Both the position numbers and the translations under genes were made by a program. This document shows, piece by piece, positions 9,619 through 40,312 of a DNA stretch of 64,000 bases; the first letter of the stretch is position 1; every line of letters starts with the position of its first letter. Under the pieces are notes generated by a model. That model was given only the letters and a program-made list of their open reading frames with translations. It had not been told where the DNA came from and did not search any database. This DNA comes from Planctomycetota bacterium (lineage in GTDB: Bacteria; Planctomycetota; PLA2; JAEUHO01), in NCBI GenBank assembly GCA_965222115.1, contig CBDCTJ010000001.1, forward strand, positions 512,001 to 576,000, given 5' to 3'.

Positions 9619-11121
9619 CTATTCCGTTCCTTGCCGACCCACCGCCAGGATCAAATGCGCGTGCGCGATGTGGAGGTCGCGCAATGCGCGAGCGGCATCG
9701 AGTCGAAAGCGAAGCAAGCGGCGTAGCGCATCGAATACGTCGAGGGGAGATGCACCGCCGGTCGCATAGGATGCGGAAGCGTCTTCGTAGACCTGCTGAG
9801 CTTGCTTGAGCTGCACGTCGTGATAGAGATCGCGCAGGCGGCTCGCCGTTTGGAAGTTACTGTGGGCCTGCTGCACGCGGAACTGAGTCTCATCGCGAAC
9901 GGCCGCTAGCGCGTTTTTTGCTGCGCTGAGAGAATCGCGCATCTCGCGCAGGTAAGCGTCTTTGGTGCCAAACCAGGGATCGGGTTTGATCTTTGGACGC
10001 ACGTCAAACGGCTGCTTGGCTCTTTCGCTCCCTCCCGTGGCGTGCGAGACGCCCGCCATCTCGCTAAGTCCGATGGAGAAGGCCGGATAGGTGCCCAATT
10101 CGCCGAGGGCGATCATTGTCTCCATGCGCGCAAGACGAGCATGGGCCTCGCGGATCTTCGGCTGCGTCACCAGCGACGCGCGGATATAGATGGACGCGTT
10201 CGATTCAATCTGGGGCACCGATGACGGCGTCGGTTCACCAAGCGTGCTCTCAAGCGGAACGTGCATGTGTCTCTTGAGATCAGCCGCCAAGATGCGTCCA
10301 TCGCGCTCCAAGGTCTCTACGCGATTATCGAAGTTGGCGATCTCAACCTGGGCCTGCAAGACGGCGCCCTTCTTGCCGATTCCAGACTCGAATCTGCTCC
10401 GCGCCACCGCCTCCAACTGTTTCGTGTACGCCGCCATATGTCTGAGAATCTGGATGGCCTGCCCAACGTAGATCAGTTTCGCAAAGCCGATTCGCGCCTC
10501 GGTGAGCACACGATGCGTAGTCCCTACGTACCGGGCACGCGCCTCCTCCATCGAGTGTCCCACGAGCGCTGCCTTGAGCTCCAACGTACCGGGGAACGGA
10601 AAGTGCTGATCGAGGCGATCACCGGATAGCGGCATACCGATCTTGGTCATGGAGCTTCGCTGAAAACTCGCGTACTGACCGATGATCGCGTCGAGATAGC
10701 TGACCTGCGCATAGCGATTTTTCGTGGCTTCGAGTTTCTCTCGCGCCGCCGCGATAGCGGGATTGCGCATCCATGCCGCCGTGAGCATCACGTTTTCGTC
10801 AATCGGATTTGACAACGACGCCGGGAACGAAGGCTCTTGCGCTACCTGTTGCATCGCCGAATCGGCGGGAGCACCAACGAATGTCGCAAAGGCCCAATCA
10901 CTGTGGTTCTCAAGCCGTTCATTCCACAACGCAAGCGCGCGCTCCACAACATGAGGACCATTTGGTGTCTCCTCAATGCTCGACGCAGGCAGCGTGGCGC
11001 TACCGTTATCCACAAAATGATCAACGGCGAGAGGACGCGGAACTAGGCGGCGCGCGTGGCACGAGGCGACTACGCATGTCGAGAGCGCCAGCAAGACAAA
11101 CGTTGGCACGCGGTACATCAT
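9619..11121 (-). CDS. TolC family outer-membrane efflux lipoprotein (copy 2)
   Basis: Lipobox VVASC, 'RNPAIAAAR', 'QHFPFPG.L.LK', helical OEP repeats; ATGA overlap with upstream gene. Confidence 0.85.
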   Translation of the reverse strand: MMYRVPTFVLLALSTCVVASCHARRLVPRPLAVDHFVDNGSATLPASSIEETPNGPHVVERALALWNERLENHSDWAFATFVGAPADSAMQQVAQEPSFPASLSNPIDENVMLTAAWMRNPAIAAAREKLEATKNRYAQVSYLDAIIGQYASFQRSSMTKIGMPLSGDRLDQHFPFPGTLELKAALVGHSMEEARARYVGTTHRVLTEARIGFAKLIYVGQAIQILRHMAAYTKQLEAVARSRFESGIGKKGAVLQAQVEIANFDNRVETLERDGRILAADLKRHMHVPLESTLGEPTPSSVPQIESNASIYIRASLVTQPKIREAHARLARMETMIALGELGTYPAFSIGLSEMAGVSHATGGSERAKQPFDVRPKIKPDPWFGTKDAYLREMRDSLSAAKNALAAVRDETQFRVQQAHSNFQTASRLRDLYHDVQLKQAQQVYEDASASYATGGASPLDVFDALRRLLRFRLDAARALRDLHIAHAHLILAVGRQGTE

Positions 11122-12560
11122 CGTGTGTTCTCCCCACTTCGCCAGGGATTGAGGCTGATTCCAACAAGCTGTTCCAACCGAGCCACCATCTGCTCGTGGT
11201 CCACCAACGCACGTTGTTCGGCGAGCTGGAAGTTCAGCCACACCATGCGCGCTTCCAACAGCCGCCCAAACAGATCGCGACCTGCCTCTTGTCGCGCTTC
11301 GGCAATGTTGAGCGCCTTCTTTGCCTGGGGGATCAAGGATTCCCGATACAGACGCACGAGACGCTCCGCGTTTTGAAGTCGAACGAACACCTTGCTGATG
11401 CGCGCGTGAACGCTGTCGGTCTCAGCACGAATGGCGTGCTCCGCTGCGTGCCGGAGATAATGGGCCTCCTCTCGCTTGGCCCGATTTTTGGGACCCCAGA
11501 GCGGGACGGTAAATCCGAGACCAATCCCAACTGCGTCGTCACCTTCGCCGGGCGGCGAGCCGATCGCATTCCCGACAAACGAATATTGAATCCCAAGCGA
11601 AAAGTCGGGCACCGCAGCCAGTCGCGCCAATCGTTCTGCGTGCCTAGCACTATGCAGCTTATGGGTCGCAGCTTGAATTTCTTGCCGCCGATCGTGAGCA
11701 AGGTCGTAGAGCTGCTTCCGCTTCATGTGCAGTCGTCGAAACGGGAGCCGGCCTGTGACGAGAACGGATGCGCTGGGATCCTGGGACAAAATCGTATTGA
11801 TCTTAGTCTCTTCGTTTGCCCGGAGTTCTTCCAACGTCACCTTGTCATAGGCTAACTGTGCCAGAGAGGACTGGGCCTTCAGCGTGTCGAACAGGGAAAG
11901 TGTATCCGGCTCACCTACGCCCGTTGCCCCATACATCGTCGATGCCCGGGTCGCAATGTGAGTAGCAAGCTGCTGATTCTGCTCGACAATTTCAATGGCG
12001 CGACGCAGATAGACGAGCTCCGCGTAACTTACCTTGAGCTCAGCAACGACATCGCGAAGGGCAATGTGGTATTCAAGTTCTTTGACCCGTGCCTGCTCCG
12101 TCGCCATCGCGCCTTTGAGTTTGAGCTTGGCCGGGTAGGGGATGACCTGCCGAAACTGAACGGAACGTTGAAGCGGACCCACACGCGTTTGAATCGGCTC
12201 GATCATTTCCGTGTAGGTGAACATAGGATCAGGAAGCGAACTCACATGTATCGGCCGCGCGCGCGCAGCAAGCCACTTCATCCGCGCTCCCGCCAACCGC
12301 GGATTTCGCCGCGCTGCCGTATGGATCATGCGCGTCAACTCGGAATGATGTGTAGTAACCACCGTCGCGCCTCGTGCGCGATTCGCCGTCGTTGCAATAT
12401 GCGGAGTGCTATCCGCTGGAGCTGAGAAGTGAATGGACGGCAACCACACTTGATTCGTATGAATGCTGCGCTGGCAGCCGTTCGCAAACAACAGAACAAC
12501 TGGCAGCACGGTGGCCCAACGGAGGCATCGACAGATCACGGATGAGTCTCCATAATTCAC
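11118..12560 (-). CDS. TolC family outer-membrane efflux lipoprotein (copy 1)
   Basis: Lipobox FANGC, 'RNPRL...LPDPM', 'PDFSLG..Y', 'TVPLW', 'ARLEQLVG'. Confidence 0.88.
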   Translation of the reverse strand: MNYGDSSVICRCLRWATVLPVVLLFANGCQRSIHTNQVWLPSIHFSAPADSTPHIATTANRARGATVVTTHHSELTRMIHTAARRNPRLAGARMKWLAARARPIHVSSLPDPMFTYTEMIEPIQTRVGPLQRSVQFRQVIPYPAKLKLKGAMATEQARVKELEYHIALRDVVAELKVSYAELVYLRRAIEIVEQNQQLATHIATRASTMYGATGVGEPDTLSLFDTLKAQSSLAQLAYDKVTLEELRANEETKINTILSQDPSASVLVTGRLPFRRLHMKRKQLYDLAHDRRQEIQAATHKLHSARHAERLARLAAVPDFSLGIQYSFVGNAIGSPPGEGDDAVGIGLGFTVPLWGPKNRAKREEAHYLRHAAEHAIRAETDSVHARISKVFVRLQNAERLVRLYRESLIPQAKKALNIAEARQEAGRDLFGRLLEARMVWLNFQLAEQRALVDHEQMVARLEQLVGISLNPWRSGENTR

Positions 12561-12590: not shown

Positions 12591-13361
12591 TCAATTACCT
12601 GAAGCGAGGTATCCGAAGGTCCAGGGCTCACGACGCATGGCCGTTAAGAAGCGCTCAGGATCTTTGCGGAACTTGGCAACGCACGGCGGGCAACAGAATC
12701 CGATACGCTGGCCTCGATAGGTGACGAATCCACCGCTTTTCGTGACGAGCTTGCCCATGACGGGGCACCGTCCATTGACCGTTCCAGCACTTGCGCGCGC
12801 CGTTCGCAACTGCAGCGCAGTAGGGCCGGGACGGTCGTAGGCATACGCCAGAGGATCCTTCTGCATAAGGCGCATGTATCGAGCAGGATTGGCCTCAAAT
12901 TTTGCTTTGCACGGCGGGCAACAGAATTGAATTCGCTGACCCTTGTGAGTGGACGAGCCACCGCCTTGCACGACGGTTTTCCCCATGACGGGACACCGAC
13001 CATTGGCTGCGCCCGCCTGTCGCTTCGCCTTGCGCATCGCCACGACGGATGGAAATCGCGAGATGTACCAGTACTTGGGTGGATTGAGGCGCATGAGATC
13101 CATGTATCGAGCGGGCTCCGCTTGAAATTTGGCGGCACAACCCTTGCAACAAAACGCGACGCGCTCGCCCCCGTAGGTCATCGCACCACCTTCGGTCGTC
13201 ACCAGCCGACTCCTAATCGGACACAACCCATTGACCGAACCCGCCCGTTGCGCCGCGCCTTGAAGTTGCTGTTTCGTGGGTGCAGGATCTTTCGCGTGGG
13301 CCACGGCGCCAGACCAACACATCGCGCAGGCAAGTGCTGAGACATAGAGAAACGTTTTCAT
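12591..13361 (-). CDS. Secreted protein with three YHS/TRASH-like metal-binding repeats
   Basis: Signal peptide; 3x 'NG.CP.....V...GG..T..G.R..FCC..C.AKF...P.R'. Confidence 0.85.
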   Translation of the reverse strand: MKTFLYVSALACAMCWSGAVAHAKDPAPTKQQLQGAAQRAGSVNGLCPIRSRLVTTEGGAMTYGGERVAFCCKGCAAKFQAEPARYMDLMRLNPPKYWYISRFPSVVAMRKAKRQAGAANGRCPVMGKTVVQGGGSSTHKGQRIQFCCPPCKAKFEANPARYMRLMQKDPLAYAYDRPGPTALQLRTARASAGTVNGRCPVMGKLVTKSGGFVTYRGQRIGFCCPPCVAKFRKDPERFLTAMRREPWTFGYLASGN

Positions 13362-13363
13362 GG

Positions 13364-16300
13364 TTACGTCCTTTCCATGAGTGGATCAAGTGACTGTCCG
13401 GAATTGGGCGGCAACGCGCTGTCGCCAGAAATTCGTGTGCGCCGAATGCGACGCTCTTCCAGTGCGCAATAGGCCATGGGAACGACGAACCACGTAATGG
13501 CTGCAACGATCATGCCGCCGATGGACGGCACGGCCATGGGCCGCATGACATCGCTACCGCGTCCCTCGGTTAGAAAAATCGGAATCAGAGCGAGAATCGT
13601 CGTCACGCTGGTCATGAGCGCCGGACGGATGCGCTTCTGCCCCGCTTCGAGGACGGCTGCACGCACACCTTCAACGGTCGTGGGCTTTCGCTTGGCGATG
13701 ACCTGTTGAATGTAGGTCCCAATCACAATGCCGTCGTCGGCAGCAATGCCAAAGACGGCGATAAATCCAACCCACACCGCTACCGTGAGATAGGCACCGT
13801 AGTAATCCAGCAAAATAAACCCACCCGATAGCGCGACCGGTATGCCCAAAAACACAATGAGTGAAGGACCGAAACGCCCGAAATGCAGGAAGTGCAAGAG
13901 CAGATTGAGTAGCAAGCAAAGGGGAACCAAAATGGAGAGCCGCTTGGCCGCGCGCACCTGATTTTGATAGCGTCCTCGCCAGTCCCAATACACGCCCTTG
14001 GGCAGCGTAAGTTCCCCACGATCGATCATCGCGCGCAGCGTGGCGTCGGCCTCTTCCACCAGTCCAACCTCGTCACGCCCCTCCGCATTGAACATGACGT
14101 ATCCGACGAGCAGTCCGCCCTCACCACGAATCATGCCCGGCCCGGGTGCCACCGCGAAATCGACGACGTCGGACAGCGGTATGTATGCGCCATCAGCGAT
14201 GGGAACGGGCGTACGGCGAATGGCCTCCATGTCTCCGCGCCAGGCGCGCGCGTACCGCACACGAACGGGATACCGTGCACGACCCTCCACACTCTTTGTT
14301 TGTGGCATGCCTCCAAGCGCGACTTCAATCACGCGTTGCACGTCTTCCACGCGCAGCCCATAACGCGACAGCCGTCTTCGATTGGGGCGAATCTCCAGAT
14401 AGGGCTTGCCCATCAACCGAAGTGCGGTCACGTCGGCGGCACCAGGAACGTTTTTAAGTGCCTGTTCAAACCGCAGGGTTGCTTCTTCAATGGCTTCCGA
14501 CGTAGGCCCAAAGATGCGCTGACCGATGGAAGCCTTGATTCCGGATTGCAACATGACAATGCGGGTTTCAATGGGCTGCAGCCAAGACGGAGCCACACCG
14601 GGAATGTCAGTCTTCTGACGAAGTTCCGCGATGAGCTTCTCGCGTGTCATTCCTGGCCGCCAAAGATGCCGCGGTTTCAAGACGAGAATCGTCTCGACCA
14701 TGCCCACAGGGGCGGGATCCAACGCCGTCTCTGCGCGACCCGCCTTGCCGACCACGCGAACGATCTCGGGCACTTCCATCATGCCGCGGTTTTGCGCCAT
14801 CATGACGTCAATGGATTGATTGAGTGAACCGTGCGGCAAAATGCTCGGCATGAAAAGCAGGCCCCCTTCATCCAAGGGCGGCATGAACTCCTTTCCCACG
14901 CCGGGAAATCGTTCGTAGAGAGCGGCGAGCGGCCGAACGCGTTCGGCCTCCACACCAATTTGATTCAAGGTCCACGCCACGGGAGCAAGCACACGTTTGG
15001 CCCCCAGCCACACCATGGATCCCCACAGCACAAGCAAAATCGGTGCGATGGCGAAGAGGATTTTGTTGCGCAAGATCCAACGCAAGACAGGCGTGTAGAC
15101 GGCAACGACACCACGCGCAACCGCATTGTCTTCAAGCGGCGTCAGCGGTTCGCAGAAGGCCTTAAACGCGAGACCGCCAAACAGTAGCGCCGCGATAAGT
15201 CCCAAAACAGTTGGTTGCACACGCAACACCGAATTCATGAGCGAGCCCGGCGCGGCCATCGCGGCATCGGACCAAAAGTAGATGCAGGCCCCCGCCACCC
15301 CGCCGATAAGTCCAGCAATGAACGCCGCCGGCGAACGGCGCAGTCGACCGGGCTTTAGCACGTAGTGGGCCAGGACAGGCACCAAGGTCATCGACACGAG
15401 CAACGCAGACGCCAAAGCGAACGACTTGGTCCACGCGAGCGGACGAAACAACTTCCCCTCTTGATCCGTAAGCAGAAACACAGGCAAGAAACTCACCACA
15501 GTGGTCGTAATGGCAGTAAACACGGCGCCTGCAACTTCGCAAGAGGCGTTGTGGATGGCCTTACGGCGACTTATCTGTGGGGGTCGCTCAGTAAGATGGC
15601 GGTGGATGTTCTCCGTCATCACAATGCCCATATCCACCATGGTGCCGATGGCGATGGCGATGCCCGCCAAGCTCATGATGTTGGCGTCCACACCAAACAC
15701 GCGCATGGCCACAAAGGAAATCAACACAGCGGTTGGCAGCGTGATTGCCACCAAAACGCTTGATCGAATGTGAAGCAGAAACAACAGGATGACGATGATG
15801 GTGATGAGTGATTCAAACTGCAGCGTTTCAATCAACGTTGCCTGCGTTTCTTCCACGAGCAAGGTGCGGTCGTAGAAAGGGCGCACCACAGCGCCGGCAG
15901 GCAAGCTTGGACGAAGCCGTTCCAAGGCTTCTTTGATGCGTTCAATAACGTGTAGCGGATTGGCGCCGTAGCGCATCGTCACCACGCCCCCGACCAACTC
16001 GCCATGTTCGTCAGCCAACGCGCCGCGACGAAAGGCCGGCCCAAGCGTCACCGTGGCGACATCGCGGATGCGAATGGGAACGTGCTCGCGTTCCAGTATC
16101 ACGGCCTCTTCCAAGTCTGTGAGGTTCTTGATGAAGCCCACACCGCGGATGACGTTTTCGACACCGGCGTGTTCAACCACTTTGGCTCCGACGTCGAGGT
16201 TGGCACGCTTCACTGCGTGGGCCACATGCTGAAGACTCACACGGTGCGCTCGCAAACGAAGCGGATCGACGTCGATCTGATATTCCTGGACGAATCCGCC

Positions 16301-16927
16301 CACCGACGCCACTTCGGCAACACCCTCCACCGTTTGCAACGCGTAACGCACGGTCCAGTCCTGAATCGACCTGAGCGCGGCGAGGTCGTGTGACCCATCA
16401 GGACTTTCAATGGTGTACCAAAACACCTGACCAAGACTGGTGGCATCGGGGCCAAGTGCCGAACGTGCATCGGCGGGCAACTCGCGTTGCGCGACGTTGA
16501 GTCGTTCCAAGACGCGACTGCGCGCCCAGTAGATATCGGTGCCATCTTCAAACACCACATAGATCTGACTAAAGCCAAATCCCGAAATGGACCGCACGTC
16601 GAATACCTGAGGAATGCCTTGCAGAGCTACTGCAAGTGGATAGGTCACTTGGTCTTCCACGTCTTTGGGACTGCGACCGTGCCACGGTGTGTAAACGACG
16701 ACTTGGTTTTCACTGATGTCGGGAATGGCATCCACCGGCACGTCGTCATAGGCATAGAAGCCATAGACCGCCAACCCGGTGATCAAGAGTGCCACCAGCA
16801 TGCGATTGGTGAGCAGCCCGCGGAAGAACCCGCCGAAGTGACCCCCGCCACGCAAATCGCTACCGGATGGATCGTCCGGGTCGGGCGCGGGCGGATTCAA
16901 CCAAGAACGAAACGCAAAACGACCCAT
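13364..16927 (-). CDS. cusA: CusA-type heavy-metal efflux RND permease
   Basis: 'DAIPDISENQV', 'NIMSLAGIAIAIGTMVD', 'KEFMPPLDEG', 'RIRPALMT', 'GSDVMRPMA'. Confidence 0.95.
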   Translation of the reverse strand: MGRFAFRSWLNPPAPDPDDPSGSDLRGGGHFGGFFRGLLTNRMLVALLITGLAVYGFYAYDDVPVDAIPDISENQVVVYTPWHGRSPKDVEDQVTYPLAVALQGIPQVFDVRSISGFGFSQIYVVFEDGTDIYWARSRVLERLNVAQRELPADARSALGPDATSLGQVFWYTIESPDGSHDLAALRSIQDWTVRYALQTVEGVAEVASVGGFVQEYQIDVDPLRLRAHRVSLQHVAHAVKRANLDVGAKVVEHAGVENVIRGVGFIKNLTDLEEAVILEREHVPIRIRDVATVTLGPAFRRGALADEHGELVGGVVTMRYGANPLHVIERIKEALERLRPSLPAGAVVRPFYDRTLLVEETQATLIETLQFESLITIIVILLFLLHIRSSVLVAITLPTAVLISFVAMRVFGVDANIMSLAGIAIAIGTMVDMGIVMTENIHRHLTERPPQISRRKAIHNASCEVAGAVFTAITTTVVSFLPVFLLTDQEGKLFRPLAWTKSFALASALLVSMTLVPVLAHYVLKPGRLRRSPAAFIAGLIGGVAGACIYFWSDAAMAAPGSLMNSVLRVQPTVLGLIAALLFGGLAFKAFCEPLTPLEDNAVARGVVAVYTPVLRWILRNKILFAIAPILLVLWGSMVWLGAKRVLAPVAWTLNQIGVEAERVRPLAALYERFPGVGKEFMPPLDEGGLLFMPSILPHGSLNQSIDVMMAQNRGMMEVPEIVRVVGKAGRAETALDPAPVGMVETILVLKPRHLWRPGMTREKLIAELRQKTDIPGVAPSWLQPIETRIVMLQSGIKASIGQRIFGPTSEAIEEATLRFEQALKNVPGAADVTALRLMGKPYLEIRPNRRRLSRYGLRVEDVQRVIEVALGGMPQTKSVEGRARYPVRVRYARAWRGDMEAIRRTPVPIADGAYIPLSDVVDFAVAPGPGMIRGEGGLLVGYVMFNAEGRDEVGLVEEADATLRAMIDRGELTLPKGVYWDWRGRYQNQVRAAKRLSILVPLCLLLNLLLHFLHFGRFGPSLIVFLGIPVALSGGFILLDYYGAYLTVAVWVGFIAVFGIAADDGIVIGTYIQQVIAKRKPTTVEGVRAAVLEAGQKRIRPALMTSVTTILALIPIFLTEGRGSDVMRPMAVPSIGGMIVAAITWFVVPMAYCALEERRIRRTRISGDSALPPNSGQSLDPLMERT

Positions 16928-16929
16928 CG

Positions 16930-18291
16930 CTAGCCTCCGTGACCCGCATGGGGATCGGCCGGAGCCGCGGCGGCTTCAGGCAACATGAAACTCGGTTTCC
17001 CGGTGAGCTGTAGCTGGCTATCGATCAGAAACTGGCCACGCGTAACGACCTCTTCGTCTTCCTCAAGCCCGTCTAGTACCACGAGAGAATCGCGAATACG
17101 AAAGCCCGTCTTGATCTCTCGCGGTTCGTAGATGGCGGGCCAGCGGTTCTCCCCATTTTCCAACGGCCCCGCTTCCTGCGTCATGACGTAGACGATCTTT
17201 CGATCGCCGCCATCCAACACCGCACTGCGTGGAACAGTGAGGACATGGCCGGGTGGCTGCTTCGCTTTCGGATCGAGAACCTGTCCCCCTCTCGAAAGCG
17301 ACACAAGTACGCTCGCGTCCACGTAGGCACCGGGTTTTAGCCGACCCGTTGGATTGGGAAGATCCACTCGCACGCGAACCACGCGCCGCTTGGTGTCAAG
17401 CAGCGGATCAACAAACGAGATCGTTCCGCGAAACACTTCGCCAGGAAGGCTCGGCACGGCGACCTCGACCCGTTGCCCAACGAAAACGGCGCCTGCATCC
17501 TCTTCGAAAACATCCAACATGGCCCACACCGTTGAGAGATCAACAACGGAGAAGAGATTGCTCCCGGTCTTCACATAGTCGCCCACGCTGACGGATTTTC
17601 CGAAAACCGTGCCCGCAACGTGGGCAACAAGATCAACGTGATCCCGCGCTTTCCCGTCGCGTTCCACAGCCGCAATGAACGACTCCGGCACGCCAAGCAA
17701 CTCGAGCCGGCGCTTGGACGCTTTGTAGATGGATGCCGCGCCTTCAAGGAGGGAGTCGCTCGCCTTGTCGATTTCATCCAGCGCGTGCTTGGCCGAAAGA
17801 AGTTCTTCCTGCGCGGCAACGAGTTCGGGAGCATAGATAGACGCCACACGCTGCCCCTTGACTACCGTATCGCCTGTAAAGTCAACAAAGAGACGCTCAA
17901 GGCGGCCGCCCACCCCCGCCGTCACCTGCGACTCCAATCGTTCATCGCGACGAATATGACCCAACGCCCGCAGGCGGTGGACTCCTTCGGTACGCACGAC
18001 AACCGCAGTACGAACGCCTGCCATGAAACGCTCGCGATGTCCGAGACGTACCTGACGGCCTTCGTCTACGACGGGCTCCATATCCATGCCACACACGGGG
18101 CACGTGCCGGGTGCGTCCTTCATGGTGCAAAACATGGGACAGGCGTACTTTCGACCGTCACCAAGGCTCGCGTCTACCTGATTGGGTGCGTCGCGAAACA
18201 ACCAAGAATGAGGCGTTGCCGCTACGGCAAGGGCGCCCACGCACAAGCCCACCACGAGCCCTATCCAACTACGGTTCACAGGCGCGGACAC
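16930..18291 (-). CDS. cusB: CusB-like RND periplasmic adaptor with N-terminal heavy-metal-binding domain
   Basis: 'YACPM...PGTCPVCGMDM', 'IYAPELVAAQEE', 'DLSTVW', 'GQFLIDS', His tail 'PHAGH'. Confidence 0.9.
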   Translation of the reverse strand: MSAPVNRSWIGLVVGLCVGALAVAATPHSWLFRDAPNQVDASLGDGRKYACPMFCTMKDAPGTCPVCGMDMEPVVDEGRQVRLGHRERFMAGVRTAVVVRTEGVHRLRALGHIRRDERLESQVTAGVGGRLERLFVDFTGDTVVKGQRVASIYAPELVAAQEELLSAKHALDEIDKASDSLLEGAASIYKASKRRLELLGVPESFIAAVERDGKARDHVDLVAHVAGTVFGKSVSVGDYVKTGSNLFSVVDLSTVWAMLDVFEEDAGAVFVGQRVEVAVPSLPGEVFRGTISFVDPLLDTKRRVVRVRVDLPNPTGRLKPGAYVDASVLVSLSRGGQVLDPKAKQPPGHVLTVPRSAVLDGGDRKIVYVMTQEAGPLENGENRWPAIYEPREIKTGFRIRDSLVVLDGLEEDEEVVTRGQFLIDSQLQLTGKPSFMLPEAAAAPADPHAGHGG

Positions 18292-18293
18292 GA

Positions 18294-18749
18294 CTAGTCA
18301 CCCTTCGCATTGGCCAACTCGGCATCGACCCTCTTCAAGTACTTCTCAGGATTCTTCAAGAACAGCGTGTCGCAACCGGGACAACAGAATCCAATTCGAC
18401 GGTCCTTGTAGTCCACGAACACGGCGGGATCGACGGCGTTGCCCATGACCGGACACACGGCGTTCTCAGGCGCACCGCCGGACGCGGAAGCTGCCGATGG
18501 ATCATGGGTCGGCGATTCGTCAGGTGCGGGCGCAGGTGCAGGCGCGGGCGCAGGCGATGATGCCGGAGTCGATTCACCGCCTAACGATGAACCGGACGAA
18601 GGCTGAGGGCCTGGGTGTGCGTGGGCGGCACGCTCAGGCGTCGGCGTGCTCGGCAACTTCTTTTCGTGATCCAACTGAGCGGCCCGAATGAGAAACACCA
18701 CCAGTGCACCCACAATGAGACCCATAAGAAAGAGAGTCGATGTCTTCAC
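18294..18749 (-). CDS. Membrane-anchored YHS-domain protein
   Basis: N-terminal TM, Pro/Ala linker, 'NAVCPVMG...YKDRRIGFCCPGC...F.KNPEKY'; SD AAGGTGAGG upstream. Confidence 0.85.
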   Translation of the reverse strand: MKTSTLFLMGLIVGALVVFLIRAAQLDHEKKLPSTPTPERAAHAHPGPQPSSGSSLGGESTPASSPAPAPAPAPAPDESPTHDPSAASASGGAPENAVCPVMGNAVDPAVFVDYKDRRIGFCCPGCDTLFLKNPEKYLKRVDAELANAKGD

Positions 18750-19006
18750 AATAGTTCCTCACCTTCGAATTCCAATCGACGTCGTTTGGCCAAACGGATA
18801 TGCGCAAGCACGCCGCGCGGTTAGCGCGGATTGGCTAGGAAGTGCGCCAGCACGTAGTCCACGTGCGGCGGTATGTCGCGCCGTTCGATCTGAAGTCCCG
18901 AGCCTCATGGAATCGAAGGCATCAAAACGGGCTATTCAGGTGCGGGGCGAGCGATGGATGCAGCGGAGTTGGGCTGCGGCGCTAGTCCAGCTCGTCCATG
19001 AGCGTG

Positions 19007-19468
19007 CTAAATCAGAAAGACAGTCAATCCCGGTGGTGCAATTCGCCAGGGTGGAAAAGCATCGCTCGTAACACGTCTGCGATTGGCTGACAGCTCAACG
19101 TTGCCAATCAGCGGCGAGGCTGTCGATAGAAAGGCGAGATCAAGATGCGCTAGACGCGCATCGCCGAACGAAACACACTCCGTCGCGTCGAACAGACTCG
19201 TTCGGGTACCTGGGCAGATCGTAGTGCTTGGCTCGTTCCCCGACGGGGAATCCTGGTTAACCGTTCAACAAGGCGCCTTCACGGCCCCGGCGGACCCGTT
19301 CGCAAGCGACGGCGTAGCAGCACCATGCGCCCAGTGTCCACAAGAACGAACGCAGTGTCCACAAGAACGAACATTCTCGGGCCCACACTGGCAGGGGCGG
19401 TACAGATCACCATGCGCGACATTGAGCATCGCAAGCGATAACAGGAGGCTGGAAATTGCGCGGATCAT
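19007..19468 (-). CDS. Cys-rich leader protein (DUF2946/CruR-like layout) with in-frame UGA at codon 68; selenoprotein candidate or nonsense-mutated gene
   Basis: Signal-like N-terminus, CQC and CGHC motifs, 'APC-UGA' at 19265-19267; the frame stays open 85 more codons to 'FPPWRIAPPGLTVFLI' and TAG at 19007-19009. Confidence 0.6.
19332..19372. repeat. 21-bp tandem duplication encoding VRSCGHC/VRSCGHW
   Basis: CAGTGTCCACAAGAACGAAC present at 19332 and 19353. Confidence 0.9.
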
Positions 19469-19478
19469 GAACCTACAC

Positions 19479-19507
19479 ACTATAGGCGAAGCGATGGGGA
19501 ACGCCAA
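19479..19507 (-). promoter_or_regulatory. Sigma70-type promoter for the metal-efflux operon leader
   Basis: Minus strand TTGGCG-17 bp-TATAGT, 10 nt upstream of ATG 19468. Confidence 0.55.
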
Positions 19508-19575
19508 TCGGACGAACGACATCACGCCTTTGTGCCGTGGTTTCCCGAAGTTTTCGAAATATCGCCGTGAGCGAA

Positions 19576-20904
19576 CTAAAAGTCAACCACCACTGACACC
19601 CCAATGATGTCCACTGAGTTCTCCGTATGGCCGACGAGGCGACCTGCGGCAGGCGTGGTGCGATCGACGTCGCCGTCGTCGATGAAGAGATGGGCGTAGC
19701 TGGCGTTAATCTGAATATTGCGGGTGAGTTGATAGCCCACGCCGGCTGCGACCCAAAGGCGATCGTTACCGGGAATGCGAGGCGTGCGAGTTTCGTCGGG
19801 AATCGGCGACTCATCGTAGGCTACGCCAAAACGAAACGTCCAGCAGCGATTGGGCTGGTAAATCAACCCCGCGGAGTAGCGCATGGTGTCGTCCCAGTCG
19901 AGCGCAAGGGAGCTCACGGGCTCCGTGGGGTTCTCGAATTCGATATCGGCCGAGTCGAAACTACTCCAGCCGGTCCACGTAACGTCAGCCAAGAACGACC
20001 ACTTACGGTTGAGCTTGCGGAAGTAGCTCAGGGAAAGCGTGTCGGGCATCGTGATGTCTACGCTGGCATCGGTATCCACGAAACGCGCTCCGCCGATCGC
20101 ATTGGCGATTGCGTCCATGCCTGAAAAATCGGCTTCACCCTCAAGTTCATGCTCGATCTTTGAGCGGTAATGCAAACCGATGCGCGTGCAGCAATCCGGG
20201 TGAACCATGAGACCCACGTTCCACCCAAAGGACCAGTCGTCACCGGTCACGTCAACAAAGCCGTCGTTTTGTTGGGGTGTGAAACCAAGAGCGCCCCCCA
20301 GTTGTGTGGCGTCAATCAGTCCCCCGTCGATGGCGTTTTCAAGTGTGGCCTCCGCGTACTGCACATTGAAGCCAGCCCCGAAGGACCAGTGGCGATTGAG
20401 CTTCACCGCGAAGGCGGGGTTGATATTGATTGTGGTGAGTTCAGAGTTCGTCGCGTGATAACGGCCGATCCAATCCTCGCCCCAGTCACTGCGAAGTCCG
20501 AAAGGGGCGTTCACGCTGATTCCCAGACGAAATCGATCCCCCATCGGCACGACACCAAAGAGACTGGCTACAGGTACGGTCACGCCACCATCGCCGCCGT
20601 CGCCACCCAACAGCGGCGTACCAAGACTACTGATGGACCCCTCATCCTTGAACTTCCCTGAAGGAAAGATGACATGGCCCGAGCCAACCCATTGCCGTCG
20701 TTTCAGCACGGTCATACCCGCGGGGTTCCACCACACCGTACTGGCGTCTTGCGCGGCAGCCGCTTGACCGGCTTGCGCATTGCCAAGACCCGATCCCGTT
20801 TCGACAATGGCAACACCACTGGCAAAGGCCGTGGACCCATAGAGCAGCGCGAGCACAAACGCGAATAGCGATAGCGCTACGCCACCGCGAGTCGAGTGGT
20901 TCAT
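19576..20904 (-). CDS. fadL: FadL/Toluene_X outer-membrane long-chain fatty-acid transporter
   Basis: 'GLGNAQAG.AA.A.DASTVWWNPAGM', 'APFGL', 'TININP', 'RTPRIP..DR.W', C-terminal Phe. Confidence 0.92.
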   Translation of the reverse strand: MNHSTRGGVALSLFAFVLALLYGSTAFASGVAIVETGSGLGNAQAGQAAAAQDASTVWWNPAGMTVLKRRQWVGSGHVIFPSGKFKDEGSISSLGTPLLGGDGGDGGVTVPVASLFGVVPMGDRFRLGISVNAPFGLRSDWGEDWIGRYHATNSELTTININPAFAVKLNRHWSFGAGFNVQYAEATLENAIDGGLIDATQLGGALGFTPQQNDGFVDVTGDDWSFGWNVGLMVHPDCCTRIGLHYRSKIEHELEGEADFSGMDAIANAIGGARFVDTDASVDITMPDTLSLSYFRKLNRKWSFLADVTWTGWSSFDSADIEFENPTEPVSSLALDWDDTMRYSAGLIYQPNRCWTFRFGVAYDESPIPDETRTPRIPGNDRLWVAAGVGYQLTRNIQINASYAHLFIDDGDVDRTTPAAGRLVGHTENSVDIIGVSVVVDF

Positions 20905-27063: not shown

Positions 27064-29085
27064 TCAGAATCCCAAATGGATGGTGACTTCGCTGCCGGGC
27101 GAAACGGCAGTTCCAGCCGGCGGCTCCTGCTTGATTACGCGCGTCTTGAACTTACCCACCTGAATGCGAATACCCTTTTCCTTCACACGCAATCCTGCGG
27201 CTTGTAACAAGTCTTTGGCACGGGATGCCGACTTGCCGCCCACGTTTGGCACCGCGACTTGCGCGGGTTGAATGCCGCCTGTGGTACCCATTGACACGCG
27301 GTAGGCGACGCGAACGGTGGCACCGCGGTGGACGATGGAACCCTTGGGTCGGTCTTGCGCCGTCACAACTGCCTGGACGCCACGCCCAAGGGGCGGGCCA
27401 GTAAGCGCCGCACGCAGCCCGCGCGCCTGCAACAACGCCCGCGCATCGCGCAGCGTGCGCCCCACCAGTTCAGGTACGCGTACGCGTGCCCCTGGGGGAT
27501 TCGGATCAATCGTGCCCCGTCCCTTGCGTACGAGACGGAACGCCACCGTGCTTCCCTTAGCAACGATGGTGCCCGCTTGCGGCGATTGTTCCACTACCAT
27601 ACGCCGTCCTCGACGATCCACGTCGCGGGTATCGCCAAACGACATGTTGAGGCCTTGTTCTTCACAGAACGCACGGGCTACGCGGAAGGGCTTGTTGACG
27701 AAGTCTTGCATCTGCACACGCGCTGGAATGACGAGCGTCAGTGCGCGGCCCGCTCGCATTCGTCTGCCTGCTGCCGGATGCTGCTCCACCACACGATCCA
27801 ACGGTCGATCCGGGTGTTCGCGCTGCACGAGTCGCGGCATGAGCCCCGCACGCAATGCACGAGCTCTCGCGACAGCGATCGACTGGTCTTCACACGACGG
27901 CGCGCGCACGGCGAGGTGAGAGTGGCCATGATGTGATGTCTTACGCGCCAACCCCAGGATCACAAGCCCGCCAGGGCGCAGGGGCGTACCGGGCTCGGGG
28001 AATTGTGCGAGTGCTGTCCCGGGCTCTAGCGGCGACGGCATCCACCGCGGCATCACACGCGCACCAAAGAGGCGGAGCAACGACATGGCGTTGTCTCGGC
28101 TTAGACCTCGCACATCCGGCACTGCCACCGCACGACTGCGCAATCGATCCCTCGGACGGCAGATGGTTACAGTGACAGCACTGGTTGGTGAGACCTTGGT
28201 CCCTGCGGCAACCGATTGCGCCACGACGCAATACGGATCGACCTCGGCAATGCGATCGTTCCAACGCGGCGAAATGCCACACGACCAAAGCAGTTGTTGT
28301 GCTTTGTCAAATTCAAGGCCCGTGAGGTCGGGCATGCGAACGGTGCCCACCGGCGCAGCGTGCTTGCCCGCAACTTGCAACGCGATCGTTGCGCCAGGCA
28401 GTACCTCGGCACCCGAACGCGGATTTTGTGCCGTTACCGTTCCCGGTCGCACGTTGGCATTGAGATCAACGTGTTGGACATCGACGACCAACCCGTAGGC
28501 TTCGGCGATATCGCGCGCCGCTCGAACGCGTCGTCCAATCAATCGGGGCACGATGGTTGGTGGTTGGCACACTTCCAACCGGATATCCCCACGATAGGGA
28601 TGTTTCTTTCCTGCACGGGGCCGTTGACGAAGCACCGTGCCCGCCGCATCGCGGGGACCCGTTGTCTGTACGACTTGCACGACATACACATCGCGAAGTG
28701 CTTCGACGGCTTCGGATTCCTCCATGCCCCGCACATCGGGAACAACCGTTTGCACGAAGGGGCGAATGGCTACTTGAATCGCAACGGTGGCGCCCACATC
28801 AACGTGTGTCCCGGGCTGAGGATCTTGTGCCATGACGGTGTTCGGACGTGCACCAATCCGCGTGGAGATGTCAACAGTGAGCCCCATCTGCTCAAGCAAC
28901 GTGATGGCCTCGCGCCGCGTACGACCAACCACGGACGGCATCTCCATGGTTGATATCACGCCCCCGTGACGCGGTGACCCGCCGCGAGGATTGGCCCATG
29001 CAACGCTGTTCTCGATCAACAACAAGGCAGCGATGCCGATACAGAGGCTTAGGCCAACGTGACCAGGACGAAGAAAACGCAACAT
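27064..29085 (-). CDS. Secreted protein made of about 9 PASTA domains
   Basis: Nine '(V/M)P.(V/L).G.....A...L...G....V..Q.P..G' repeats after a signal peptide; no catalytic domain. Confidence 0.88.
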   Translation of the reverse strand: MLRFLRPGHVGLSLCIGIAALLLIENSVAWANPRGGSPRHGGVISTMEMPSVVGRTRREAITLLEQMGLTVDISTRIGARPNTVMAQDPQPGTHVDVGATVAIQVAIRPFVQTVVPDVRGMEESEAVEALRDVYVVQVVQTTGPRDAAGTVLRQRPRAGKKHPYRGDIRLEVCQPPTIVPRLIGRRVRAARDIAEAYGLVVDVQHVDLNANVRPGTVTAQNPRSGAEVLPGATIALQVAGKHAAPVGTVRMPDLTGLEFDKAQQLLWSCGISPRWNDRIAEVDPYCVVAQSVAAGTKVSPTSAVTVTICRPRDRLRSRAVAVPDVRGLSRDNAMSLLRLFGARVMPRWMPSPLEPGTALAQFPEPGTPLRPGGLVILGLARKTSHHGHSHLAVRAPSCEDQSIAVARARALRAGLMPRLVQREHPDRPLDRVVEQHPAAGRRMRAGRALTLVIPARVQMQDFVNKPFRVARAFCEEQGLNMSFGDTRDVDRRGRRMVVEQSPQAGTIVAKGSTVAFRLVRKGRGTIDPNPPGARVRVPELVGRTLRDARALLQARGLRAALTGPPLGRGVQAVVTAQDRPKGSIVHRGATVRVAYRVSMGTTGGIQPAQVAVPNVGGKSASRAKDLLQAAGLRVKEKGIRIQVGKFKTRVIKQEPPAGTAVSPGSEVTIHLGF

Positions 29086-29259
29086 AGTAGTGCTCCGTGC
29101 GGGCGAGGGGTATCGCGCTGAAATCGAGGCGCTCAGCCAGCGTAGCGTCTTATCATCGTGTCGAGTAGCCACGCGCACGCGCTGGTCGAATTCTCGCGCT
29201 GGTCAAACGGGCGCCCGTTCGATTCGGACGATGATGGACCGCGTCGCCTGGAGGTTGCA

Positions 29260-37540: not shown

Positions 37541-40312
37541 ATGCACACCTTCACAACGCGCATCGGGGCCCGGTCCACGCTCGCGTTCTGCCTGGCAGCG
37601 ATGTTCTTCGTCGCATTCCCTGCCACGCCGCCGCCGGCCCAATCCAAAGAAGCCGAAACGGTCTACGTCAAGCGTCGAAAACTCGGCAAGTGCATTTGCA
37701 ACACGGGACAAGGGTCGTGGCAGTACCTGCGCTCACCCATGCGTCCGCCAGCCGATCCCGTCCGCTGCGGTCTGCTGCTGTCGGGCGGTGATTGCAAGGC
37801 GCGGCCGCGTCCCAAAGGAACCAGTGGTGTGTGTTGGGCGCACCAAAGCAAAGAGTGTTTCTGGAAGCGTCACGCCTATAGCTGGAAGCTGAGCTGCTCA
37901 ACGTGCCTCGTTGATGAGAAGTGCACGTCCTGTAATAAGATGATCGGCGCACCCAACCCCAAGCTGCTCGCAACCATTCAACGCCAACTCAAGATCGAGG
38001 GCCACTCCAAGAAGTCACCGCTCTACCTGGTGATCTCGCCCCACTTTTACGTCGTGACCGACATTCACAAGAAGCTCAAAGTCAAGGTAGATGGCGGCGC
38101 GCCACGCGTGGCCACCGGTCACGAAGTGGCACACCTCTATGCCCAGCGCTGCGAGTTGGCCTACAACGATTTCGAGCACTGGTTTAAGGGGCAAGTCAGA
38201 CAGCCCGGTCTCATGGGCGTCTACCTTATGCGCCGCAAGTCAAGCGCTGAGAAGTTTGCATCCAAATATCTAGGTGGCGCCAATACGGATATGCTGTACG
38301 GCGGCGGCGACACGAAAGTCGCAGGCGGCTTCTGCGGCAATGGGTTTGTGGGTTCGCTCCAGGAGAGCGGCAACGATGACAGTCTGCATGCGTATTGCCG
38401 GCACATGATTGGTCATATTCTCTTCTCGTGTTGGATACACGTGAAACCCCACGAAAAGAACTGTCCTAAGTGGGCGTTTATCGGTGCTGCGCACTTCCTC
38501 GAGAAGCTCCTGGAACCCCATAAGGACCTCGCACATTACTGCTCCAACGAAACGTCGGCGCCCACGGGCCCGGGCAAGAATTGGATGCGACGCGCGGCGG
38601 CGATGGCGGGCAAACGGATCGATCCCATCGAGACATTCTTTGCGCGAAAATCGCTGGGCGCGTTTTCCCATCGAGACCACATTCGTGCGTGGTCCCTGAT
38701 GGAACTTGGACTCAAAGAGGATCAAGACCGCTGGCTGGCCATGTTGGAACTTCTGCGGTATGGCAATGAAGAGGGCTACGCCTTCCAAGAGGCCTACAAA
38801 CTTTCACCCGATCAAGCCAACCAGCGCTGGGCCGATCGACTACGCGGCAAGCGCAAGTCGTTTGGCGAAGTGAAGAGAGATTCGCGTGAGGATCCCGACG
38901 ACCCCGGTCGTCGTGAGCGACAGCGCGTTGCCATGACCGAAGATCCCGATGAACTCGCGGGGCTCATTCGCGGTGTGCATGCCATTAAAGATGTGCGCCT
39001 CGCTGACGCCGTCATCGAACGGCTCACGCATCCCTCCGATTTGGTTCGGGAAACCATCAACCTGGTCTTGGGCCGCACGACCGACGACGCCGTACTGGCT
39101 TTCTTGGCGGAATCGGGATTGACCCATAGCAAGGGTTTGATCCGAGCCGGTGTTGCGCGCGCATTGGGCGATTTGCGCTACACCTTGGCCACGGATGCGT
39201 TCTTGACCATGCTCGATGATTCATTTTGGCTTGCACGGGCAAACGCTGCACGGGCGCTCGCGATCTTCAAGGAAAAGAAGGCCATTCCCAAGCTGCAAGC
39301 AGCGCTTACGGAGAAGCAGCCCAAGGCGTGGATTGCATTTGCCGACGCGCTTGCAACCTTCAAGACACGCAATAAGGAAGCCACCATCGAAACGGCGAAG
39401 CGATTGAGCCACAAGTCGTGGCAACTTCGCGTAACGGCCTGTCGTGCACTGTCGGCCTACGGCACCGACGACTGCATGGACGCGCTGATCAAGCGCTTCA
39501 AATTGGAGCGAGGTCGCTTGGAAGAAGAAATCTATTCCGCGCTCAAGGCGGTCTCACGAGATGACCTTGGCCGCAAGGCGAGCACATGGAGTGATTGGTG
39601 GGATAAGCAGAAAGAGAAGTACGGGGGCCTGGATCCCAACCCACCGCCCATGGTGAAGGAAGACCCGCGCTACGCCAGCCCCAAGAAGATGCGCGAAGAC
39701 GAGCCACACTACTACGGTCGTCGCATCTACTCGAAGGCCGTAGGCTTCGTGTTTGACACAAGTGGCTCGATGGATAAGAACATCCGAATTCCCAAGGGTG
39801 CGTCTACGAAACTCGGCAACATCCCCGTGTCGGGCAAACGTATGGACGTCGCAAAGGCCGTCCTTGCACAAGCAATTCGTAAACTCCACCCTCAAACGAA
39901 GTTCTACTTGGTGTTTTTCTCATCCGACGTGAGACCGTGGAAAAAGAAACTTGTGGCGGCAGGTTCGGCGGGCAAATCCGCGGCGTCGGCCATCATGAAC
40001 GTGCCTGCAGCGGGCGAAACCAACATTCACGGCGCGCTCAAGGCCGCACTTGGCTTACATGAAAAACCCACATTGGCCGCGCGCCTCGACGACATTCCCG
40101 ATACGGTTTATTTCCTCACCGACGGCGCGCCCACGCGCGGCGAAATCACATCGCCGCCCGAGCTGCTCGGCTGGTTTGAAGATCTCAATCGTTTCGCCAA
40201 GGTAGAAATGCACGTGGTCGCCTTTGGCACCCTGGGCGTGGATCTGCCGTTTTTGCGCTCACTTGCCAACATTGGCGGTGGCGACTTTATTCACGTCCCT
40301 GAAGAACGTTGA
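37541..40312 (+). CDS. Secreted Cys-rich / HEAT-repeat / VWA protein
   Basis: Signal peptide; HEAT repeats 'R..AARAL'; VWA MIDAS 'FVFDTSGSM', 'GETN', 'YFLTDG.PT'. Confidence 0.85.
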   Translation: MHTFTTRIGARSTLAFCLAAMFFVAFPATPPPAQSKEAETVYVKRRKLGKCICNTGQGSWQYLRSPMRPPADPVRCGLLLSGGDCKARPRPKGTSGVCWAHQSKECFWKRHAYSWKLSCSTCLVDEKCTSCNKMIGAPNPKLLATIQRQLKIEGHSKKSPLYLVISPHFYVVTDIHKKLKVKVDGGAPRVATGHEVAHLYAQRCELAYNDFEHWFKGQVRQPGLMGVYLMRRKSSAEKFASKYLGGANTDMLYGGGDTKVAGGFCGNGFVGSLQESGNDDSLHAYCRHMIGHILFSCWIHVKPHEKNCPKWAFIGAAHFLEKLLEPHKDLAHYCSNETSAPTGPGKNWMRRAAAMAGKRIDPIETFFARKSLGAFSHRDHIRAWSLMELGLKEDQDRWLAMLELLRYGNEEGYAFQEAYKLSPDQANQRWADRLRGKRKSFGEVKRDSREDPDDPGRRERQRVAMTEDPDELAGLIRGVHAIKDVRLADAVIERLTHPSDLVRETINLVLGRTTDDAVLAFLAESGLTHSKGLIRAGVARALGDLRYTLATDAFLTMLDDSFWLARANAARALAIFKEKKAIPKLQAALTEKQPKAWIAFADALATFKTRNKEATIETAKRLSHKSWQLRVTACRALSAYGTDDCMDALIKRFKLERGRLEEEIYSALKAVSRDDLGRKASTWSDWWDKQKEKYGGLDPNPPPMVKEDPRYASPKKMREDEPHYYGRRIYSKAVGFVFDTSGSMDKNIRIPKGASTKLGNIPVSGKRMDVAKAVLAQAIRKLHPQTKFYLVFFSSDVRPWKKKLVAAGSAGKSAASAIMNVPAAGETNIHGALKAALGLHEKPTLAARLDDIPDTVYFLTDGAPTRGEITSPPELLGWFEDLNRFAKVEMHVVAFGTLGVDLPFLRSLANIGGGDFIHVPEER

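Follow-up and report, generated by a model that had tools for sequence, protein, structure and literature searches.

A 64,000-nt stretch of Planctomycetota DNA (positions 512,001–576,000 of contig CBDCTJ010000001.1, forward strand; hereafter the window) carries on its minus strand, at the head of a Cus-type copper-efflux operon, a 153-codon open reading frame (ORF) with an internal TGA. Judged from its homologues, this gene is the selenocysteine (Sec) form of an undescribed protein family, and its UGA is very probably decoded as Sec. The anatomy of the gene and of its surroundings appeared best explained by a regulatory copper-sensing leader, a reading to which we assign a probability of about 0.5; with Sec decoding granted, such a role becomes slightly better than an even bet. 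Families with Sec and Cys forms, and leaders of the CutF type, are known kinds; what is new is a Sec-bearing family of putative leaders outside DUF2946, with a new terminal motif.

The frame runs from an ATG at 19468 to a TAG at 19009–19007 and is interrupted solely by the TGA at 19267–19265, right behind a Cys codon (TGT, 19270–19268). Another 85 open codons separate the TGA from the TAG, and with the TGA read as U (residue 68) the product is MIRAISSLLLSLAMLNVAHG / DLYRPCQCGPENVRSCGHC...APC-U...ICPG...PWRIAPPGLTVFLI. All of these coordinates were re-derived and agreed with a preliminary description of the window, which had reported a TGA after a Cys codon, 85 codons further in the same frame and a total of 153 aa. 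The same description had allowed for a base error or a simple Cys-to-stop mutation, an alternative that we rejected because the TGA was conserved in five genes and identical in separately assembled contigs. Independently assembled contigs from three runs covered it with 0 differences (a fourth run had no coverage), these runs representing two samples of one study that was possibly the origin of the same DNA.

The usual criteria for a selenoprotein, which we take to be conserved flanks, Cys in homologues, a hairpin resembling a selenocysteine insertion sequence (SECIS) and a Sec-using host, were applied to the gene. Their wording here follows passages of PMC1088965 and PMC12013277. A Cys-TGA at the same alignment column was found in five genes from three genomes, one in the window and two each in the genomes G022 and G418. 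When 41 related genomes were searched in six frames with the 153-residue query, G022 gave two full-length matches (E = 3e-17 and 1.5e-13), both interrupted by a single TGA; a scan of one genome per species added a further Sec-form gene (L031), and a profile search of the order revealed a second Sec copy in the same genome as L031 (G418:C27, L041). The paralogues lie at L032:3634–4050 and L033:4388–4810 in G022 and at L031:6001–6432 and L041:4322–4735 in G418. Weak six-frame matches in G037 and G022:C247 were discarded as noise, their translations showing stops or no likeness, and four weak partial matches were recorded in G382, G029, G286 and G335 (E = 1.6e-4 to 8e-4). All five Sec forms read ...APC-TGA..., remain open behind the TGA and end in ...P[PE]GL[TA]VFLI-TAG; the recurrence of the Cys-TGA, the open frame, the hairpin described below and the C-terminal end in four other genes of two other genomes is more than chance would produce. 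The ratio of nonsynonymous to synonymous substitution rates (dN/dS), obtained for four of the five genes (six pairs), was 0.17–0.39 upstream of the TGA versus 0.21–0.49 downstream, and both flanks are under purifying selection.

Homologues with Cys were recovered by a profile search of 1.84 billion representative proteins, which gave 28 matches at E ≤ 1e-3. All 23 full-length matches (127–168 aa) carried Cys at the Sec column, and 20 of these also had a Cys directly before it. Three entries of 52–53 aa stopped exactly at ...[AP]PC, like gene calls cut by a TGA, and two were C-terminal fragments. Gene callers truncate such genes at the UGA, and the 52–53-aa stubs sit in public protein collections. 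The Cys forms found in the genomes G009, G011 and G012 contained TGC or TGT at the Sec column and no internal stop, and this column held the most invariant Cys of the family. The comparison with relatives at the UGA that had been suggested in the preliminary description thus returned either TGA or Cys at the column, with conserved flanks on both sides. A first metagenome scan found no relatives among 227 pattern matches; a scan with a smaller alignment found one contig of 1022 nt, which starts 14 codons past the Sec position and is uninformative on the UGA and the hairpin.

The SECIS-like hairpin proposed for the window was recovered as described, with an upper stem-loop UUCCCC-GUC-GGGGAA whose loop G follows 20 nt after the A of the UGA, and a possible lower stem of GGUU with AGCC (coordinates in Table 1). 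Its conservation, which had been left to be checked, was evident from the same register in all five Sec forms: counting the T of the TGA as 1, positions 18–22 paired with positions 28–32 in 25 of 25 cells, and two of the five pairs showed compensatory changes. Pair 18–32 reads G-C in every Sec form except that of the window, where it is U-A, and pair 19–31 is U-A, A-U, G-U or G-C; the loop G24 is invariant and takes the second loop position in the 5-nt loop register. Covariation was computed on ungapped 40-nt segments of the Sec forms. The observed values for the covariation score, the paired cells, the doubly changed cells and the further pair types were reached by 16 of 500 column shuffles and the count of pairs changed on both sides by 53 of 500, and every slid register of the alignment was worse than the observed one. 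The amino acids encoded by the stem varied (DSPSGN vs TTPEGS) while the pairing stayed. Three genomic Cys forms folded, as GC-rich RNA does, yet never in the Sec-form register. In the Sec-type selD genes of the window's genome (G000) and of G418, the hairpin loop starts at about the same distance from the UGA; a search for an FdhA-type selenoprotein as a further SECIS comparison gave nothing over the cut-off and none with a TGA. A passage of PMC1088965 describes the bacterial element as a stable stem-loop directly after the UGA, with an apical loop that is small and includes a G, and this arrangement was found in the Sec forms, five of five in register and with the loop G invariant. The covariation is supportive, not conclusive, for a Sec element.

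The machinery for Sec incorporation was found in the window's genome, which contains selA, a full-length selB (scoring 346.6 bits where the cut-off is 242, in a frame of 651 codons without stops) and one tRNA-Sec (anticodon tca). Its selD (L003, contig C1:654443–655637) has an in-frame TGA of its own within GG-U-AAK, the mark of a Sec-type SelD. The gene falls in the final 1.2 kb of contig C1, and no open frame in the terminal 2.7 kb of this contig exceeds 199 codons, a maximum that ranks among the lowest 1.2% of such windows. Since this contig end is poor in open frames, an assembly fault is a plausible cause of the frameshifts in selD. The search for the machinery thus found selA, selB and the tRNA-Sec present and open, and a selD that has a Sec codon of its own and, in the assembly, frameshifts. 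The Sec recoding put forward in the preliminary description was supported by the conserved TGA, Cys in homologues, the conserved hairpin and the presence of selA, selB and selC. The genomes G022 and G415/G418 also carry selA, as do the Cys-form genomes G009, G011 and G012; the idea that Sec and Cys forms differ by the presence of selA was dropped, the gene being found in both kinds of genome. As a side observation, selA begins contig C7 (C7:4–1092, L001) and selD ends C1, which makes it probable that these contigs are neighbours; G418 has an intact selA next to an intact selD.

Members of the family share a predicted signal peptide, the sequence LLRPCxC right behind the likely cleavage site, a CGxC motif, the C-[C/U] pair and CxIC[PC][GK]PR, followed by a stretch of ~50 residues with almost no sequence conservation and fixed length. 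Conservation was highest in the last 14 residues, up to the stop codon, where the almost invariant PWRxxPEGLxVFLI-stop is found. A motif pattern parsed 25 of the 27 full-length members (P0006 has the same Trp by eye, and P0023 is without it), and in each of these 25 the distance from a Trp to the last residue is exactly 12 and that from the CxxC cysteine to the same Trp 51–57, despite the unconserved sequence of the spacer. The CxxC cysteine is thus 64–70 residues from the C-terminus, and the C-[C/U] pair is another 17–22 residues out. The window copy was the most divergent one (37–40% identity); the second VRSCGH unit of its ORF, a 21-nt duplication that keeps the frame, resembles a recent slippage event.

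Database searches placed the family outside existing models. No Pfam family was found for the window protein and the Sec forms, and 32 aligned members gave only stray matches (E ≥ 6.6e-4); CusF-type PF11604 matched none of these 32. Three Sec forms scanned against NCBIfam, including its SaoC, HgcA and CC/Se motif families, matched 0 models at E ≤ 1. A word-indexed search returned 12 proteins, all metagenomic and none with a Pfam domain, three of them named and each as 'hypothetical protein', and a protein atlas gave only unnamed clusters, commonest in Planctomycetota. Of 40 genomes from the order or class, 6 carried the family, all in the window's own family-level group, and no member was found elsewhere among 401 sampled genomes of the phylum (nine candidates scored per genome); judged by sequence, it is restricted, among the genomes searched, to one family-level lineage of Planctomycetota. 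AlphaFold2 with the 32-row alignment predicted no confident fold (mean predicted local distance difference test score 57, predicted template modelling score 0.26), being confident solely for the signal-peptide helix at residues 2–14. The family goes unmentioned in the available text of the 2026 selenoproteome review PMC13188914, in which 'Planctomycet', 'leader' and 'signal peptide' are absent. A full-text literature search found no paper combining 'selenocysteine' with 'DUF2946' and, among the matches listed for selenocysteine with arrest or leader peptide, no paper on the subject. The available text of PMC9973294 contains neither 'selen' nor 'Planctomyc', and its CutF-like lists could still contain Cys forms. 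The present gene would add a selenoprotein family outside both Pfam and NCBIfam.

The position of the gene at the head of the operon and the plausible promoter noted in the preliminary description were both recovered, the gene being the first of a Cus-type operon with a sigma-70-like pair upstream. The promoter search found two promoter-like sites versus 0.4 expected from shuffles, and a terminator-like hairpin (19609–19588) closes the upstream FadL-like gene. Same-strand copper genes came next downstream in all eight loci with readable flanks: YHS, CusB and CusA genes in the window, L031, L032, L033 and L042; two outer-membrane efflux protein (OEP) genes and then CusB in L044; an unassigned ORF with an OEP and a multicopper oxidase gene in L041; and just one YHS-like ORF before the contig ends in L043. 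The counterparts of the window's CusA-position ORF in L031, L032, L033 and L042 match ACR_tran (E ≤ 1e-204). No same-strand copper gene was seen upstream of a family gene, in an inspection that was not systematic for every locus. The CusB ORFs of L032 and L033 are long, at 613 and 746 aa, and begin with an N-terminal extension in place of the separate YHS gene seen at the other loci. The paralogues precede different operons, CusBA twice in one genome, and CusBA and OEP plus multicopper oxidase in the other.

The gap between the family gene and the next start was ~106–302 nt across loci (starts taken from ORF lists) and contained a C-rich, G-poor stretch in seven of the eight; in the window the excess of C over G was +17 per 100 nt, a value reached by 1.8% of contig C1 windows. 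A possible anti-Shine-Dalgarno pairing in the minimum-free-energy structure of the intergenic RNA found no further support. No regulator of the CusRS, MerR, CsoR or extracytoplasmic-function type was found among the ORFs scanned around the operon (at least 220 aa over 864–41355; at least 85 aa over 5.1–9.7 kb and 20.9–24.2 kb), and the operon proteins scanned included no CusF-type gene (PF11604). All eight family genes with context end in TAG. As a sign of stalling specific to release factor 1 this was dropped, since TAG ends 49% of frames of at least 300 codons here and the genes are related; TAG is the commonest stop of long open frames in the window's genome.

We propose that SelB and the hairpin 17 nt downstream would decode the UGA and produce a 153-residue exported peptide with a Cys-Sec pair, which may act in cis in the manner of CutF and CruR. 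Its Cys and Sec ligands would bind periplasmic Cu(I) while the nascent chain threads through SecYEG; at the moment the ribosome arrives at the stop codon, the CxxC would have only just left the translocon. With Cu(I) bound, the ribosome would stay for a different time on the conserved C-terminal motif by the stop codon, and the length of this dwell would set the continuation of transcription and translation into the YHS-CusB-CusA-OEP genes, either through access of Rho to the C-rich leader-proximal RNA or through exposure of the next start site. We infer this cis-sensor mechanism, stalling included, from the anatomy of the gene. Selenolate is a softer ligand of lower pKa and resists irreversible oxidation in the periplasm, and Sec in place of Cys would sharpen the sensing of Cu(I).

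The closest parallel appeared to be CutF of Rhodobacter capsulatus (cutFOG), which, as described in passages of PMC9973294 and 10.1101/2025.02.05.636593, has a signal peptide, Cys41xxxCys45 and a C-terminal P109EPEGPPPRL118; when copper binds the motif exposed to the periplasm, export is delayed, the ribosome stalls, and the following gene's start site opens up. Cys45 lies ~70 residues from PPP114–116 (10.1101/2025.02.05.636593), and CutF-like genes, most of them with intergenic regions of <100 nt, have been reported upstream of genes for OEP, ACR_tran and HlyD_D23 (PMC9973294). As far as these passages go, the family resembles CutF as a small (<150 aa) exported protein with a signal peptide of the general secretory pathway and a Cys copper-binding motif, which stands ~70 residues before the C-terminal motif in CutF and 64–70 residues from the C-terminus here. 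Like CutF, it comes first before copper genes (L041 precedes a multicopper oxidase, as cutF does), and its neighbours match those of CutF-like genes (OEP, ACR_tran, HlyD_D23). Unlike CutF, a DUF2946 member that stalls on a PPP repeat, the family has no DUF2946 match and no obligatory poly-Pro, and its PWRxxPEGLxVFLI runs to the stop codon; a Sec-containing CutF-like protein is not mentioned in these passages.

CruR (Bp2923 of Bordetella pertussis, DUF2946) has CXXC and RAPP 45 residues apart, and its stall decides Rho-dependent termination before the next gene (passages of PMC9426467). As described there, it is an upstream ORF heading a copper-regulated operon with a fixed spacing from Cys motif to C-terminal motif, and the C-rich, G-poor RNA after the stop here would fit a Rho utilisation (rut) site; it differs in belonging to Proteobacteria and in having a Pfam match, neither of which holds here. 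The general analogy to CruR/CutF copper-sensing leaders drawn in the preliminary description is supported, the predicted signal peptide, the Cys metal motif, the fixed C-terminal spacing and the copper genes downstream being shared. In TnaC of E. coli, according to passages of PMC8429421, Trp12 and Pro24 are critical, and a stall with the stop codon in the A site blocks Rho from the rut site. The Trp 12 residues before the last residue recurs here in a motif that abuts the stop, a spacing that is an observed likeness only; TnaC, as portrayed there, is cytoplasmic, 24 residues long, senses free tryptophan and ends in Pro before a UGA read by release factor 2, and there is no sequence homology. 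Metal-related bacterial selenoproteins named in the available text of PMC13188914 (MerT-like, P-type ATPase, SaoC (CU), HgcA (CU) and CopZ-family (CU)) likewise use Sec for a metal-ligand Cys, in a CU or CxxU motif and with Cys-form homologues. They are transporters, chaperones and enzymes with Pfam or NCBIfam models of their own, and none of those named is a leader ORF.

The most far-reaching version of the leader, a first Sec-containing regulatory nascent peptide that combines Cys-Sec copper sensing, a TnaC-like stall on Trp −12 and PEGLxVFLI-stop, and the UGA as a second checkpoint gating efflux by selenium as well as copper, seems to us unlikely. At such a checkpoint, ribosomes would cover the last 85 codons and the C-rich RNA before the pump genes only after SelB delivers Sec, and termination at codon 68 when selenium is short would leave 255 nt more of naked RNA ahead of the operon. 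If the copper-sensing leader is real, nascent-chain copper sensing reaches beyond DUF2946 and into Planctomycetota, with a new candidate arrest motif and a directly testable regulatory link between selenium and copper.

Several points weigh against a Sec-decoded copper-sensing leader. The covariation is thin, coming from five Sec-form DNA sequences only, all from related genomes; the apical loop of the hairpin is merely 3–5 nt, and Rfam gave no match at E ≤ 10 over positions 18600–19700 of the window. The selD of the window's genome carries several frameshifts as assembled. The shallow alignment (32 rows) could explain the failure of AlphaFold2, and small metal-binding proteins often fold only with metal. 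The family has no obligatory RAPP or poly-Pro motif: PP occurs in some copies (window, L041) but is missing from L008, L022 and most Cys forms. In length, the intergenic regions exceed most of those given for CutF-like genes in the passages of PMC9973294, and the 257-nt intergenic RNA showed no significant structure (folding z −0.57).

The main rival holds that the product is no leader acting in cis but a stable copper-binding selenoprotein of the periplasm, which would serve as chaperone or buffer, pass Cu(I) on to CusB/CusA and stand in for CusF; the conserved hydrophobic C-terminus would then act either as a docking strand or as the ligand of a PDZ-type protease or sensor. Such a protein is a serious possibility, if the less probable one, and would be well served by the signal peptide with its A-x-A/G site, the many conserved Cys plus Sec, the adjoining YHS/TRASH metal-binding partners and the lack of a CusF-type PF11604 gene in the scanned proteins of the operons; selenoproteins that handle metals through CU or CxxU motifs are tabulated in the available part of PMC13188914. 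It does not sit easily with a predicted structure devoid of a fold, a middle third that is unconserved in sequence yet fixed in length, the peak of conservation in the last 14 residues up to the stop codon, or the position ahead of copper genes in eight of eight loci with a gap of 106–302 nt.

It is improbable that the UGA is now a stop in this organism, a broken selD leaving it without Sec and with a 67-residue peptide only, and the 85 codons a recent relic. Decay of this kind would fit the several frameshifts in the assembled selD and the state of the window copy, the most divergent one, which has lost the first Cys of CxIC and acquired the 21-nt duplication. The 85 codons are nevertheless still open, the C-terminal motif and the hairpin are kept, the latter with compensatory changes (U-A for G-C and for A-U), and downstream dN/dS of the window against the other copies was 0.21–0.48. 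Moreover, selA, selB and the tRNA-Sec are intact, and the damage to selD falls at the end of a contig, where ORFs are scarce in general.

Least probable of all is the model of the preliminary description, a DUF2946/CruR-type upstream ORF whose RIAPP stalls ribosomes and is reached only by UGA read-through: the window copy does read WRIAPPG and the architecture parallels DUF2946, but RIAPP is missing from the other four Sec forms (RVTPEG, QVTPEG, RQSPPG) and from the family consensus, and DUF2946 membership failed in every profile comparison. The DUF2946 hidden Markov model (PF11162) matched 0 of 32 family members at E ≤ 1; in a six-frame search of 40 genomes it matched at other loci and never at family loci, and hhalign of the family against local DUF2946 genes gave a probability of 4.3%. 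A language model provided a weak lead toward DUF2946 (score 0.93, 112 shared features). The alignment indicates that the RIAPP of the window is an accident of that copy. Genuine DUF2946 genes of the same order (L049, L050, L052, L053 and L054) have a CALC-type CxxC, end in RGPP, not RAPP, and sit at other loci; in RGPP we may see a local version of the arrest motif of CruR and CutF.

Table 1. Features of the putative leader gene and its operon (window positions; strand as given).
Feature	Position	Strand	Detail or basis
153-codon ORF with in-frame TGA	19007..19468	-	read MIRAISS...APC-U-TVNQ...PWRIAPPGLTVFLI; homologues known
Predicted secretory (Sec-type) signal peptide, residues 1–20 (...NVAHG|D)	19409..19468	-	cleavage by eye, A-x-A/G rule
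Perfect 21-nt tandem duplication repeating VRSCGH	19332..19372	.	insertion relative to all homologues
TGT-TGA, putative Cys-Sec pair, residues 67–68	19265..19270	-	column is Cys-Cys in Cys-form homologues
SECIS-like element	19230..19262	-	lower stem 19262–19259 / 19233–19230; upper stem-loop 19250–19236; invariant loop G 19244
Remnant of family C-x-[ILV]-C, here T-T-I-C (first Cys lost), then PG	19214..19225	-	family alignment
Family-defining C-terminal motif PWRIAPPGLTVFLI; Trp exactly 12 residues before last residue	19010..19051	-	family alignment
Promoter-like −35/−10 pair TTGGCG, 17 nt, TATAGT	19479..19507	-	consensus match only; just upstream of ATG
257-nt intergenic region	18750..19006	-	first 100 nt 39 C, 22 G; possible Rho-loading site
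YHS/TRASH-like small membrane-anchored protein	18294..18749	-	PF04945, E = 2.9e-5, below gathering score
CusB-type membrane fusion protein with heavy-metal-binding domain	16930..18291	-	Pfam
1187-aa ORF in the position of CusA (resistance-nodulation-division pump)	13364..16927	-	assigned by synteny and size, own sequence unscanned
Protein with three YHS/TRASH domains	12591..13361	-	Pfam
Two outer-membrane efflux (OEP/TolC-like) genes	9619..12560	-	Pfam

Some observations concern the rest of the genome and the related loci. Contig C6 of the window's genome (48116 bases) has a G+C content of 39.7%, versus 55–59% in the other six contigs, and may be a mobile element or a binning contaminant. Elsewhere in the window, the minus strand at 27064–29178 encodes a 704-aa protein that has seven PASTA repeats and, at E ≤ 1e-5, neither a kinase nor a transpeptidase domain, and a separate Ser/Thr kinase gene lies at 40309–41355. 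Just upstream of the Sec-form gene in L032, a SMODS/nucleotidyltransferase-like ORF (L032:152–3066, minus strand) adjoins a ThiF-family ORF; its SMODS (25.8 bits against a cut-off of 26.5) and nucleotidyltransferase (20.9 against 21) matches both fall just short of the Pfam gathering scores, and the pair is reminiscent of defence genes of the cyclic-oligonucleotide-based antiphage signalling system (CBASS) type.

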